From Anaeromyxobacteraceae bacterium (GTDB lineage: Bacteria > Myxococcota > Myxococcia > Myxococcales > Anaeromyxobacteraceae), in assembly GCA_047602405.1 (NCBI GenBank), contig JASGHJ010000001.1, positions 2,208,001-2,272,000 of the forward strand: 64,000 bases of DNA, read 5' to 3'. Position 1 is the first letter of the stretch; each line of letters opens with the position of its first letter. Shown one piece after another: positions 26,140 to 30,857 of this stretch. The notes beneath the pieces were generated by a model, which was not told the origin of the DNA, made no database searches, and worked only from the letters and a program-made list of their open reading frames with translations. The translations under genes and the position numbers were made by a program.

Positions 26140-28806
26140 TTGGCAAAGCAGCACCTGCTCCTCGTCGACTCCGACCCGAAGTCGCTCCGGGTGATGGAGG
26201 TCTCGCTCAAGAAGGCGGGCTTCTCCGTCACCACGGCGGTGAACGGAAAGGACGCGCTCGAGAAGGCCTCGATCTCCCCGCCCGACCTCATCCTCTCCGA
26301 CACGAAGATGCCGGAGATGGACGGCTTCGAGCTGTGCCGGCGGCTCAAGGAGGACGACCGCTACCGCGGCACGCCGTTCATCTTCCTGACCGGCCAGAAG
26401 TCGGTCGAGTACAAGGTGAAGGGCCTCGAGCTGGGCGTCGAGGACTACCTGACGAAGCCCATCTACATCAAGGAGATCGTCACCCGCGTGAAGATCCTTC
26501 TCCAGAAGCGGGAGAAGGAGCGGCTCGAGAAGAAGGACCTCAAGGCGAGCTTCAGCGGGAACCTCTCCGACATGGGCGTCGTGGACCTCGTCCAGACGCT
26601 CGAGATGGGAAAGAAGTCCGGCGCGCTCCACGTGAAGAACAAGACCGGCGCCGAGGCGGTCTGCTACTTCCGCGAGGGCCGCGTCGTCGACGCCGAGCTC
26701 GGCAAGGTCGGCGGTGACCAGGCGTTCTACCGCCTCCTCAACTGGCAGGACGGCGAGTTCGCGATCGAGTTCAAGCCCATCGAGCGGGAGGAGCGCATCC
26801 CGGTCTCGACGCAGGGCCTCCTCATGGAGGGCATGCGCCGCATCGACGAGTGGGGGCGCATCGTCGAGCAGCTGCCCGCGCTCGACAAGACCTTCGAGAT
26901 CGACACGACGCTGCTCGCCGACCGGCTCGCCGAGATCCCCGACGACGTGAACGCGCTGCTCCGGCTCTTCGACGGCCGCCGCACGCTCGAGCGCGTCATC
27001 GAGGAGGCCGACTACGACGACCTCGCCGCCGCCGGGATCATCTCGAAGCTCTTCTTCGAGGGGATCATCAAGGAGGCGGTGCCGGGGCTCCCGTCGCCGG
27101 AGCTGCCCGCGCGGCAGGCCGCCTCGCCGGCCGAGCCGGGCCGCGCCGAGGCGACGCCCGAGCCCGAGGGCGTGGACTGGTTCGCGGGCCCGGTCGGCAA
27201 GCAGGAGCCGGAGCCGCCATCACCGCCGCCGCCGCCGTCGCCGCGCCGCCCGGCGCCGCCCGCGCCCCCGGCCGCGCAGCGCCCGAGCGACGCGAAGGTG
27301 CTGCCCTTCAAGCGCGAGGGCGGCGCGCCCCCGCCCCCGGCCGCGCCCGCCTTCAAGCCCTCGCAGTTCTCGATGCCGCTGCCGCCGCCGGGCTCGCTCC
27401 CCCCGCCGCCGTCGCTCGGCCGGGGCCGCCCCGCCGCGCCTCCGCCCCCGGTCGCGCGGCCGGCCGTCCCGCCTCCCGTCGCGCCACCGGTGCGCGCGGC
27501 GCCGCCGCCTCCTCGGCCCGTGCTCGCGCCGCCGGAGGGCGTCGAGCCGGAGCCGTCGGGCGAGGTGCCCCACGCGGCCGAGGCGCCCGGCGCCGGGACC
27601 GCAAGCCCGTTCGACCTCCACGCCGCGCCCTCCGCGGGCACGCCGCCTGCGCTGGAGGCACTGTTCGAGGAAGCCGTGGCCGCGGTCGGTGCCTCGGCGT
27701 CGAGCGCCACCGCGCAGCCGGAGTCCGGGGCCGCGCCGGGGGAGGCGCCGGTCGCCGAGGTCCCGGTGCGGGTCGACGACGACGACGAGCCCGCCGCGCC
27801 CCCCGTGCGCGCGGCGCCCGCCCGCGAGGACGACTCCGACGTCGCGCCGGTCGAGGTGGACGCGCCCGAGGAGACACCGGTCGAGGTCGACGAGCCGGCG
27901 CCGCCGCCGCGGCCCGCGCCGGCGCCATCGCCCCCGGTGCGCAGGACCGCCGCCGCGATGCCCGCCGCGCAGGCCTCGCCCCCGCCCTCGCAGATCGCCA
28001 CGAGCGCCGTGCCGCTCGCCCGCACCGCCGCGCGCGCGACGAAGGGCGCCGACCTCGAGGACGAGGACCTCGCGGCCGTCAAGAAGGGCGCGCCGACCGG
28101 CCTCCTCATCGCGATCGCCCTCGTGCTCCTCGCCGCCGCCGCCGCGGGCGCCTGGTGGGCGGGGCTCGTTCCGGGGTTCTCACCGCAGCCGCCCTCTCCG
28201 CCCGCCCCCGCGCAGGAGGCGAGGGCCGCGCCGGCGCCGGCTGCCACGCCGACGGCGGAGGCGCAGCCCACGTCCGCCGTGCAGCCTGCCGCCGCGGCCG
28301 AGCCGGAGAGGCCGGCCGAGGGCGCCGCGCAGGCCGCGCCGCCCGCGGAGAACCCGGCCGAGCCGCCGCCCGCCCCGGCCCCGGAGCCGGCCGCCGTGGC
28401 GCCCTCGCCGGAGCGGCCGGCCGCGGAGCCGCCGCGCGCCGCGAGCGCGGAGGCCGACTACCGCAAGCTCCTCGCCTCCGCCGGCCGCAAGTACGAGCTC
28501 GGGCGGTTCAACGAGGCCATCGCCGACTACAAGCGCGCCCTCGCGGTGAAGCCGACCGCGGCCGCCCGCACCGGCCTCGCCCGTGCCCTCTACGACGCGA
28601 ACCGCACGGACGAGGCGGTCCGCGAGGCGAAGGTCGCGCTCGACGAGGACCCGAGGTACGCGCCCGCGTGGCTCATGCTCGGCGAGCTCAACCAGGCGCA
28701 GGGCAAGAAGGCCGCGGCGAAGACCGCCTACGAGAAGTTCCTCGCGCTCTCGCCGAAGGGCGAGCAGGCGCGCGCCGTCCGCGAGATCCTCTCGAAGCTG
28801 AGGTAG
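26140..28806 (+). CDS. Response regulator receiver + DUF4388 + long Pro-rich region + TM + TPR protein
   Basis: [54 protein letters not shown]-terminal TPRs. Confidence 0.85.
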
Positions 28807-28843
28807 GCGCGGGCCGCCCGTCCGCGCTAGAACCCGGCTCCTC

Positions 28844-28945
28844 ATGCGCGTCCTCGCGATCGAGACCTCCTGCGACGAGGCTGGGCTTCGCAGGGGGCAT
28901 CCCCCCGCACCCCCCGCCGTCTCGTCGCATCCGGAGGCGCCGTGA
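28844..28945 (+). other. 33-codon ORF whose first 12 codons duplicate the TsaD N-terminus; stop overlaps the tsaD start (GTGA)
   Basis: Translates MRVLAIETSCDEAGLRRGHPPAPPAVSSHPEAP*. A 21-bp exact repeat occurs at 28859-28879 and 28957-28977. Confidence 0.7.
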
Positions 28946-29943
28946 GGGTGCTCGCCATCGAGACCTCCTGCGACGAGACGGCCGCCGCCGTCGTCGAGGA
29001 CGGCGCGCGCGTGCGCTCCGACGTCGTCTCGACGCAGATCGACGTCCACCGCCGCTGGGGCGGGGTCGTGCCCGAGCTCGCGAGCCGCAACCACGTCGTC
29101 CAGGTGATGCCGGTCGTCGACGAGGCGCTCGCGCGCGCGGGCGTCGACCCGTCCGGCCTCGACGGCGTCGCGGTCACGAGCGGCCCGGGCCTCGTGGGGG
29201 CGCTCCTCGTCGGCGTGCAGGCGGCGAAGGCGCTCGCGCTCGCGTGGGGGAAGCCGCTCGTCGGCGTGAACCACCTCGAGGGCCACCTCGTCGCGGCGTT
29301 CCTCTCCGAGCGGCCGCCCGCGTTCCCGTACCTCGGGCTCGTGGTCTCGGGCGGCCACACCTCGCTCTACGAGGCGCGCGGGTGGGGCGACTACCGCGTG
29401 CTCGGGCAGACCCGCGACGACGCCGCGGGCGAGGCGTTCGACAAGGGCGCGAAGCTGCTCGGCCTGCCGTACCCGGGCGGCGTCGCCATCGACCGGCTCG
29501 CGAAGGACGGCGACAGGGACGCCGTGAGGTTCCCGAAGGCCGTCGTGAAGGGCGCCGACCTCGACTTCAGCTTCTCGGGGCTCAAGACCGCGCTCCTCCA
29601 CCACGTGAAGAAGCACGGCGTGCCCGGGGGCCAGGCGCTCGCCGATCTGTGCGCGAGCTACCAGGAGGCCATCGTCCGGGCGCTCGTCGAGAAGGCGGTC
29701 AAGGCCGCGCGCCGGCTGCAGCACGGCCGGCTCGTGCTCGCGGGCGGCGTCGCCGCGAACTCGCGGCTGCGCGCCGCCGCCGCGGAGCGCGCGGCGGACT
29801 ACGAGGGCATGGAGCTCTTCCTGCCCGAGGTCCGCCTCTGCACCGACAACGCCGCGATGATCGCCGTCGCCGGCACGCACGCGCTCGAGCGCGGGCTGCG
29901 CGCCGGCGCGACGCTCGCGGCCGACCCGGGCTGGCGCCTGTGA
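28942..29943 (+). CDS. tsaD: tRNA t6A37 threonylcarbamoyltransferase
   Basis: VLAIETSCDET, GGVVPELASRNH, NHLEGH, VSGGHT, DDAAGEAFDK, FSFSGLKT, TDNAAMIA. Confidence 0.97.
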   Translation: MRVLAIETSCDETAAAVVEDGARVRSDVVSTQIDVHRRWGGVVPELASRNHVVQVMPVVDEALARAGVDPSGLDGVAVTSGPGLVGALLVGVQAAKALALAWGKPLVGVNHLEGHLVAAFLSERPPAFPYLGLVVSGGHTSLYEARGWGDYRVLGQTRDDAAGEAFDKGAKLLGLPYPGGVAIDRLAKDGDRDAVRFPKAVVKGADLDFSFSGLKTALLHHVKKHGVPGGQALADLCASYQEAIVRALVEKAVKAARRLQHGRLVLAGGVAANSRLRAAAAERAADYEGMELFLPEVRLCTDNAAMIAVAGTHALERGLRAGATLAADPGWRL

Positions 29944-30857
29944 CCTCGACCTCGTACCCCTCGCCGCGCGCGCTCCTCGAGAAGCACGGCCTGCGCGCGA
30001 AGAAGAGCTGGGGCCAGAACTTCCTCGCCGACCCCGAGGTGCTCGACGCCATCGCCGACCTCGCGGCGCCGCCCCCGGGTGCGCCCGTCGTCGAGCTCGG
30101 CGCGGGGCTCGGCCACCTCACGGTGCGCCTCGCCGGGCGCGGCGCGCGGGTGACCGCGGTCGAGCGCGACCGGGACATGGCGCTCGTGCTCCGGGAGGAG
30201 CTGCTGCCGGGGTGGGGCCCCGATCCGGCTTCGCCGGTCGGGGCGGGGGGCGCCGAGCCCCCCGCGAAACGAGGCCGCATCGAGCTCGTGGAGGCCGACG
30301 CGGTGCGGGTGGACTGGGCCGCGGTCGCCGATCGCCTCGGCGTCACGCGGCTGCACGTGGCAGGGAACCTCCCGTACCACCTCTCGAGCCCGATCCTCTT
30401 CGCGCTCCTCGACCACGCCGACCGGATCGCCCAGGCGGTGTTCCTGCTGCAGCGCGAGGTCGCCGAGCGGCTCGCCGCCGAGCCGGGCACGAAGGACTTC
30501 GGGCTCCTCTCGGTGCTGCTCCAGCGCGAGGCCGACGTGCGCGTCGCGCGGCGGGTGCCGGCCGGGGCGTTCCTGCCGCCCCCGAAGGTCGAGAGCGCCG
30601 TCCTCGAGGCGCGCTTCCGGCCGCCGCCCGGCGGGCCCCTCGACACCGCGCTCTTCCGCAAGCTCGTGAAGGCCGGCTTCGCCCAGCGCCGGAAGACCCT
30701 CTCGAACGCGCTCGACGCGGCGCGCCTCGCGCCGCCGAAGGCGGTGGAGGCGGCGCTCGCGCAGGCCGCGATCGATCCCCGCCGCCGCGGCGAGACGCTC
30801 GAGGTCGCGGAGTGGGAGGCCCTCTGCCGCGCGCTCGCGCCGCGGCTCGCCGGGTAG
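29940..30857 (+). CDS. rsmA: 16S rRNA dimethyladenosine transferase (KsgA) with an in-frame palindromic insertion
   Basis: KKSWGQNFL, VELGAGLG, NLPY, QREVAER, FLPPPKVES, FAQRRKTL. Confidence 0.95.
   Translation: MTSTSYPSPRALLEKHGLRAKKSWGQNFLADPEVLDAIADLAAPPPGAPVVELGAGLGHLTVRLAGRGARVTAVERDRDMALVLREELLPGWGPDPASPVGAGGAEPPAKRGRIELVEADAVRVDWAAVADRLGVTRLHVAGNLPYHLSSPILFALLDHADRIAQAVFLLQREVAERLAAEPGTKDFGLLSVLLQREADVRVARRVPAGAFLPPPKVESAVLEARFRPPPGGPLDTALFRKLVKAGFAQRRKTLSNALDAARLAPPKAVEAALAQAAIDPRRRGETLEVAEWEALCRALAPRLAG
30201..30270 (+). repeat. ~70-bp double-hairpin REP-like element inserted in frame in rsmA
   Basis: Aligns with the reverse complement of 3082-3152; encodes LLPGWGPDPASPVGAGGAEPPAK. 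Confidence 0.8.

Follow-up and report, generated by a model that had tools for sequence, protein, structure and literature searches.

The tsaD gene of G000, the 6.16 Mb source genome of our window (the whole 64,000-nt stretch of DNA that was analysed, whose numbering is used below; G, L and X numbers denote the genomes, loci and sequencing runs of relatives), lies downstream of a response-regulator/TPR-like gene that ends at 28806, and its stop codon overlaps the start of rsmA/ksgA on the other side. The product is a full-length t6A transferase that matches TIGR03723 over residues 3-315 with 427.7 bits against a cut-off of 296.1. Upstream of the gene its start occurs a second time, and the elements of the resulting structure are collected in Table 1. 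The leader, running from ATG 28844 to a TGA ending at 28945, translates to MRVLAIETSCDEAGLRRGHPPAPPAVSSHPEAP followed by the stop, and the TGA, created by one of the five changes in the second copy of codons 1-12, overlaps the tsaD GTG at 28942. The break separates codons 12 and 13 and falls inside an invariant ETSCDET stretch that is identical in the sequences of solved TsaD structures. The longest exact direct repeat is 21 bp (28859-28879 and 28957-28977, 98 apart), and 28916-28929 is a perfect 14-nt complement of 28969-28982. The coordinates given in a first-pass annotation, among them those of the 33-codon leader, its stop/start overlap and the antisense segment, are all reproduced here. 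As a chance level, G000 holds 18 perfect 14-nt inverted repeats with loops of 20-60 nt and 75 exact direct repeats of 21 nt at distances of 60-200; a loose joint scan of the genome returns 11 sites, among which tsaD alone is non-tandem with a repeat of more than 15 bp, and genome scans found no other site of the tsaD-type build in G000.

Table 1. Elements of the tsaD locus of G000 (window coordinates)
Element	Position	Strand	Remarks
-10-like hexamer TAGAAC, predicted	28828..28833	+	10 nt before leader ATG
Leader ORF, 33 codons	28844..28945	+	opened by original tsaD start
Upstream copy of tsaD codons 1-12, ancestral start	28844..28879	+	35/36 nt identical to single start of G010
Shortened palindromic repeat	28880..28915	+	13-nt left end, G5, CAT, C6-GCA-C6
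Antisense segment spanning break point	28916..28929	+	9 nt left, 5 nt right of break
GGAGG, SD-like, also antisense continuation	28933..28937	+	pairs with CCUCC of either copy
Functional downstream copy of tsaD codons 1-12	28942..28977	+	five changes in first 15 nt
tsaD (t6A transferase)	28942..29943	+	333 aa, intact; TIGR03723

The closest relative, G010 (97-98% at the amino acid level), has a single tsaD start without duplication, and because this start and the spacer preceding it match those of the upstream copy in G000, the upstream copy is probably the old start and the downstream copy the rebuilt one. The same empty allele is found in metagenomes, runs X1, X4 and X5 each containing one contig that skips the 98 nt. 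A filled allele is present in an independent run, X12, in the form of a 128-nt contig with an insert of the same length and 12 differing letters. The X12 contig carries a compensating pair of indels, a single-base deletion and a single-base insertion at a distance of three bases; GGAGG is not kept, and none of the 8 substitutions listed for the insert region (8 of the 12 differences being listed) falls in the antisense segment.

In order to establish how widely the build occurs we have read the tsaD start in all 34 of the 37 genus genomes in which it is present. The duplication is found in nine (G000, G003, G007, G012, G013, G015, G022, G043 and G045), seven of which carry a recognisable antisense segment, while antisense without duplication is seen in four (G005, G008, G049, G052) and neither feature in the remaining 21. 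One genome of a sister genus also has the duplication; it is absent from nine other genera of the family, and the build was not found in 8 genomes of the same order. Three more carriers emerged from 80 analysed metagenome loci (92 found), and these have, one tie apart, the longest complements of the 80; the other 77 have short chance complements without duplication and were rejected as instances of the tsaD build. A scan of species genomes, which is not exhaustive in that its pattern required GAG-AC codons and overlooked two known complete-genome carriers, gave 6 matches, five in Anaeromyxobacter-type or delta records and the sixth in Acidimicrobiales, without duplication. The build is thus real, recurrent and present beyond a single strain. 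The comparison of upstream regions that the first-pass annotation had recommended removes its own proviso of a strain-private duplication, given the homologous builds in the other carriers.

The break invariably follows codon 12, with 11-13 nt between it and the G-run, and the antisense segment of carriers extends over 12-14 nt across it. Tandem units occur in G012, G022 and L031, and codons peculiar to a lineage are common to both copies of a genome (AGC Ser for G045, VNVLGI for G043, an extra Thr for G003, G007 and G015); in G007 the upstream antisense target has been lost. On the tsaD tree the build is scattered, with well-supported pairs split between the two states (G000/G010, G049/G014, G008/G018), a pattern that a single origin followed by many losses would explain as well as repeated gains.

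Fourteen units provide a measure of the relation between leader and gene. Their spacings are 86, 98, 98, 131, 140, 146, 146, 149, 149, 155, 155, 157, 158 and 200 nt, that is, 2 mod 3 in 13 cases and over nine different lengths (86-200 nt). Twelve leaders stop exactly on the next start and that of L096 on an in-frame GTG 9 nt before it; the frame rule is violated in G003 (157 nt), which has a run of eight C inside. Two G012 units were left out because the G012 assembly is frameshifted in tsaD itself, and if they are counted as misses the score becomes 13/16. Nine lengths in one frame would be expected with a probability of approximately (1/3)^8 were lengths free, an arithmetic value in which kin are not independent. 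It is the frame and not the stop/start overlap that is informative, since an ATGA or GTGA start is also common among the plain tsaD genes of the genus. Judged by these spacings the leader frame is under constraint, and TsaD synthesis therefore likely depends on translation of the leader. Coupled upstream ORFs also outlast decay of the repeat, with 20, 10 and 5 codons left in G008, G023 and G042, respectively, each beginning 9 nt after a promoter-like hexamer and ending on the tsaD start. The out-of-frame upstream ORF, the NUGA overlap of stop and start and the retained frame are the features of termination-reinitiation. The annotation had offered an insertion scar or a translation-coupled switch as alternatives; both are partly right and they are not mutually exclusive, the coupling being borne out by the frame (13/14 units) and the regulated switch not.

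In G000 and many relatives the first start is preceded at 6-11 nt by a TAnnnT/C hexamer, a position that suggests a leaderless or near-leaderless transcript; a scan for the sigma-70 consensus did not pick it up, and six RNA runs matched only 0.05-0.07 of the words. Approximately 18 nt before the hexamer a GCTCGC motif recurs upstream of tsaD across the genus (28800-28843 in the window, and relatives), which may be a -35 element.

The insert belongs to a wider family. In relatives it consists of a G-run, a variable hairpin, two C-runs, a core hairpin and a short tail, and the core hairpin, which has the character of a multicopy short GC-rich palindrome as REPs do, is found in 41 of 92 family genomes with up to 45 matches per genome. 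The core has no match in G000, its shortened tsaD copy included. G000 has a related family of its own, with ∼50-80 copies of a G-run/C-run double hairpin, many of them starting at a TGA stop and 51 of 52 sites lacking a flanking repeat of more than 10 bp. The repeat at 28880..28915 agrees in position and G-run/C-run layout with the longer inserts of 11 other carriers, and its left end resembles this multicopy family. It had been described as REP-like, which fails for the exact G/C unit (single-copy in G000 even allowing 3 mismatches) and stands insofar as related families exist. One copy of the G000 family lies within the window at 30203-30273, in frame inside rsmA/ksgA, where it adds 66 nt (22 codons); it is absent in G010.

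We have read 162 distinct core sites, a part of more than 300 listed, and at about 150 of these there is no flanking duplication. Repeats reside in frame inside unrelated housekeeping genes, as do Rickettsia palindromic elements (RPEs), at positions shared between different genomes: inside pheS (L178, L196, L207), hemB (L210, L241, L340) and pyrE (L186, L227, L244, L341), in every case with a net length of 0 mod 3 against G000. Further sites lie in what, by their motifs, look like gyrA, dnaE, accA and rluD. Several genomes have the repeat between two tandem tRNA-like genes (L055, L188, L198 and L200). The pheS gene of G000 (G000:C2:1999357-2000371) is itself split over two frames near 2000087-2000091, reflecting either an assembly indel or a real frameshift.

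Of the established classes of mobile repeat, RAYT-associated REPs and MITEs do not fit the family. A RAYT-REP system, in which a Y1 tyrosine transposase is flanked by repeats, was rejected: 19 Y1 loci of 4 genomes were without any core copy, the nearest own-family copy in G000 is at least 16 kb from a Y1 gene and the carrier G022 has no Y1 match. Neither terminal inverted repeats nor a short fixed target-site duplication is present, which removes MITEs, and a phage origin was dropped with 0 matches in two scans of viral contigs. A mobilising enzyme was found neither in the Y1 neighbourhoods nor in the viral contigs. An informal look at the 16 nt to the left of the G-run revealed no constant tag, with GATC in 23 of the 162 sites.

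At 6 of the 162 core sites a duplication of 24-51 nt extends from the repeat to a stop codon, so that here it is the end of a gene that has been doubled. In all, the repeat flanks duplicated 3' ends in glmS and five further genes. The end of glmS is duplicated in 5 of the 20 genomes read, plus L350; in these six genomes (L354-L356, L359, L372, L350) the last 11-12 codons are repeated behind the repeat, and G009 has up to four copies. The glmS duplications are about as frequent as those of the tsaD start and have no antisense and no evident function, and the persistence of such builds consequently needs no regulatory role. Break points are fixed at conserved motifs in both genes, ETSCDE/T in tsaD and D/QPRNLAK in glmS. 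A duplicated 3' end of an rsmH-like gene is seen only in G009 among 11 genomes matched. The one 3'-end duplication with antisense is L242 (also L381; G017:C151), in a gene that is presumably cyclase-like and that is duplicated in 1 of 22 genomes matched. Here an 11-nt antisense spans the junction, a result reached in 6 of 25,600 null cases. At both unrelated genes the antisense directly follows the 3' end of the repeat and covers the exact junction (9+5 nt at tsaD, 5+6 nt at L242). Located at the 3' end of its gene, the L242 segment cannot control initiation, which points to an origin of the antisense in the event that formed the build, although it is missing from the other 5 of the 6 sites. 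It is not a regular footprint of the repeat, since about 150 of the 162 copies lack a duplication and antisense is found at neither those 5 sites nor any of the glmS ends.

Across the 16 loci at which the antisense could be aligned 92.9% of cells are paired, and the helix is kept in 14 of these while the adjoining spacer is unalignable; codon 13 (ACG or ACC) is matched in 14 of 14. One pair has changed on both sides (9 G-C, 6 C-G), which 0 of 500 shuffles reach, although shuffles ignore kinship, and which may represent only one or two changes on the tree. Selection is not required for an inverted repeat to become perfect, as template switching can achieve this as well (described in PMC5941160). 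A search of 8 carrier loci against Rfam gave a single sub-threshold match and no curated family.

Folding of both conformers, as had been suggested, gives predicted energies of -93.8 and -92.5 kcal/mol in G000, with probabilities of 0.86 and 0.14. The populations are reversed in G015 (0.12/0.88) and the upstream form has a probability of 0.00 in the other 8 carriers folded. The alternative upstream pairing that had been put forward is predicted, its extent corrected to 9 contiguous pairs plus bulged ones. The proposed helix around the tsaD start is predicted as well, but the GGAGG does not lie free in its loop as had been thought: it continues the antisense after a 3-nt bulge, is buried in both conformers (unpaired probability of 0.00-0.01 in G000) and is not conserved in other carriers, so that we have discarded it as a conserved Shine-Dalgarno sequence in an open loop. 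When the leader is blocked up to and including the antisense, the long helix disappears and the start region is freed in the model. Antisense is kept without a clear leader start in G005, G049 and G052; that of G049 and G052 is mismatched, which would agree with a harmful effect of a helix that is never opened, with G005 as a counter-example.

Taken together, the anatomy of the locus, the empty and filled alleles, membership in a dispersed family, the conserved frame and the decayed upstream ORFs lead us to favor, with a probability of roughly 60%, a palindromic insertion that the gene survived through duplication of its end, with TsaD now made by termination-reinitiation after the leader. From this evidence we infer the following sequence of events. 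The repeat would have entered the ETSCDET stretch between codons 12 and 13, and only an allele in which codons 1-12 were re-created behind it would have been viable. The antisense would first have arisen during formation as a fold-back (template-switch) copy of its target, and either selection or template-switch correction would since have maintained its perfect match. Ribosomes would load at the former AUG, which is probably leaderless, open the antisense hairpin as they translate the leader, terminate at the overlapping TGA and reinitiate at the new GTG, while recombination between the 36-bp repeats would amplify or remove units. The outcome would be a constitutive lock rather than a sensor, with tsaD and the coupled rsmA depending on leader translation. 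The palindromic-insertion scar of the first-pass annotation finds support in the empty alleles of G010 and three metagenome runs and in the dispersed family to which the insert belongs, which has duplicated the ends of other genes as well.

Two other readings we consider unlikely, and to much the same degree. In the first the insert is a domesticated attenuator, with stalling in the leader, at polyproline (EF-P) or at t6A-dependent ANN codons, holding the antisense open and tuning tsaD-rsmA. The separation of only 1.3 kcal/mol between conformers in G000, PP runs just ahead of the antisense, the start region freed in the model on covering the antisense, and the helix and codon 13 match maintained beside an unalignable spacer would all fit such a role. 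Translational attenuators of the ermC or amino-acid leader type serve as the reference, and the conserved or enriched sensing codons expected of the class are not found: ANN codons number 3 of 32 in the G000 leader and are depleted in the unique parts of 12 leaders (37/437, 8.5%, versus 13.5% in tsaD bodies). No leader residue is conserved after codon 12, and translation of the repeat uses two frames among the carriers, so that the leaders have no peptide in common; the prolines arise from C-runs that are likewise read in different frames. Sensing of t6A by ANN codons was rejected on composition, and the feedback on t6A for which the annotation had allowed is not supported, GGAGG not being conserved either. 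The upstream conformer moreover has a probability of 0.00 in 8 of 10 folded carriers, G007 has no upstream target, 21 of 34 genus genomes do without duplication or antisense, and the two-sided pair change, as one or two events, is of a kind that template switching as treated in PMC5941160 can yield without selection. Essentiality of t6A genes differs among bacteria, according to PMC12632869. The same repeat duplicates the ends of other housekeeping genes, and for this reason the tsaD build has the look of an insertion that was repaired rather than of a sensor for t6A. Another candidate, ribosomal hopping of the gene 60/byps type between matching GAG codons, was set aside as unlikely, since codon 12 is not followed by a stop and the leader stays open as far as the overlap.

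The second reading is that of a guided mini-element, in which repeat, antisense and replacement gene end excise together as a small circle and re-integrate, with the antisense as a guide that would pair with the uninterrupted target. The antisense placed over the exact junction at tsaD and L242, immediately behind the repeat, the fixed break points at conserved motifs, the patchy distribution and the tandem units are all as one would anticipate. Against this, copies within a genome share lineage-specific codons, as local copying predicts, glmS units spread without antisense, no enzyme has been found and viral contigs contain none of these elements. A related conjecture, which we regard as doubtful, is that a protein-free mini-element aims at conserved motifs near gene ends by means of a junction-spanning antisense guide and brings or copies the replacement end, and that the guide has a further role at tsaD, locking a core tRNA-modification operon into dependence on translation of the element, amounting to addiction or to a newly domesticated stalling switch. 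If the antisense were a guide, an unknown targeting mechanism would be at work.

Ordinary slippage duplication of the tsaD start, with repeat and antisense as later passengers, is improbable and already largely refuted. Tandem amplification of units is common, to be sure, and unrelated repeats have accumulated between promoter and tsaD in G006, G010, G020, G041 and G050, but in each tsaD start duplication seen the same codon is followed after 11-13 nt by the G-run, no duplication occurs in 9 other genera, and the same repeat flanks other terminal duplications. Misassembly of G000, for which no run was recognised as the source of the reads (best share 0.31) and whose split pheS means that the assembly may hold indel errors, is excluded in practice by the read check that had been called for, the independent X12 run containing an insert of the same length, and by homologous builds in 12 other records.

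The preferred reading of a repaired insertion places the family close to RPEs and intragenic REPs, which are likewise short GC-rich palindromes lying in frame in unrelated housekeeping genes with no adjoining dedicated transposase, and which the accounts in PMC10969869 and PMC3733652 describe as fusions, in contrast to the duplicated gene terminus, coupled leader and junction antisense seen here. REPs carry a GTAG/CGTC tag, of which an informal look saw none in the present family. Anaeromyxobacter goes unmentioned in the main text of PMC3733652. Geobacter multicopy nucleotide sequences are palindromic families of a related group, one of them found in protein genes without frameshifts (PMC2996986); compared by description only, they differ in that no gene-end duplication is reported for them in that account. 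Bacterial MITEs, as portrayed in PMC3184786 and PMC10969869, are similarly non-autonomous, structured and shorter than 200 bp, with direct repeats flanking some copies. The family studied here differs from MITEs in having no terminal inverted repeats or fixed short target duplication and in that its duplications are rare, 24-51 nt long and end at start or stop codons.

With respect to expression, the nearest likeness is the AUGA overlap of uPPE2-PPE2 in M. tuberculosis, where the stop of an out-of-frame uORF similarly overlaps the start (NUGA), the uORF acts as a ribosome landing pad and termination-reinitiation has been demonstrated, as set out in PMC11260477. The tsaD uORF differs in being made of the gene's own former start plus repeat DNA and in having no riboswitch, and dependence on it is predicted. 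In tandem inversion duplications a direct, an inverted and a second direct copy of one segment follow each other. The same direct-inverted-direct order is found at tsaD, except that the inverted stretch measures only 12-19 nt and the first junction is occupied by a dispersed repeat. The literature consulted contains no description of terminal duplication combined with a coupled leader and junction antisense, and the repeat family is apparently undescribed, although related repeats may be listed in the supplements of PMC2996986 and PMC3733652.

How REP/RPE-type repeats enter coding sequence without killing the host is a question to which these data speak. Besides intergenic and in-frame insertion there is a third outcome, duplication of a gene terminus at conserved motifs, at the start of tsaD and the end of glmS, and filled, empty, tandem and decayed alleles are all present among cultured relatives. 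They constitute a natural series in which selfish DNA supplies a housekeeping gene with a coupled uORF and an inhibitory hairpin, the raw material of an attenuator. Apart from the palindromic family, arrays of GTCGAG-, GTCCAG- or GTCCAA-type hexamers lie between a promoter-like motif and tsaD at L011, L037 and L045 (G020, G041 and G050, respectively), and similar arrays are found downstream of glmS in G020 and G023.
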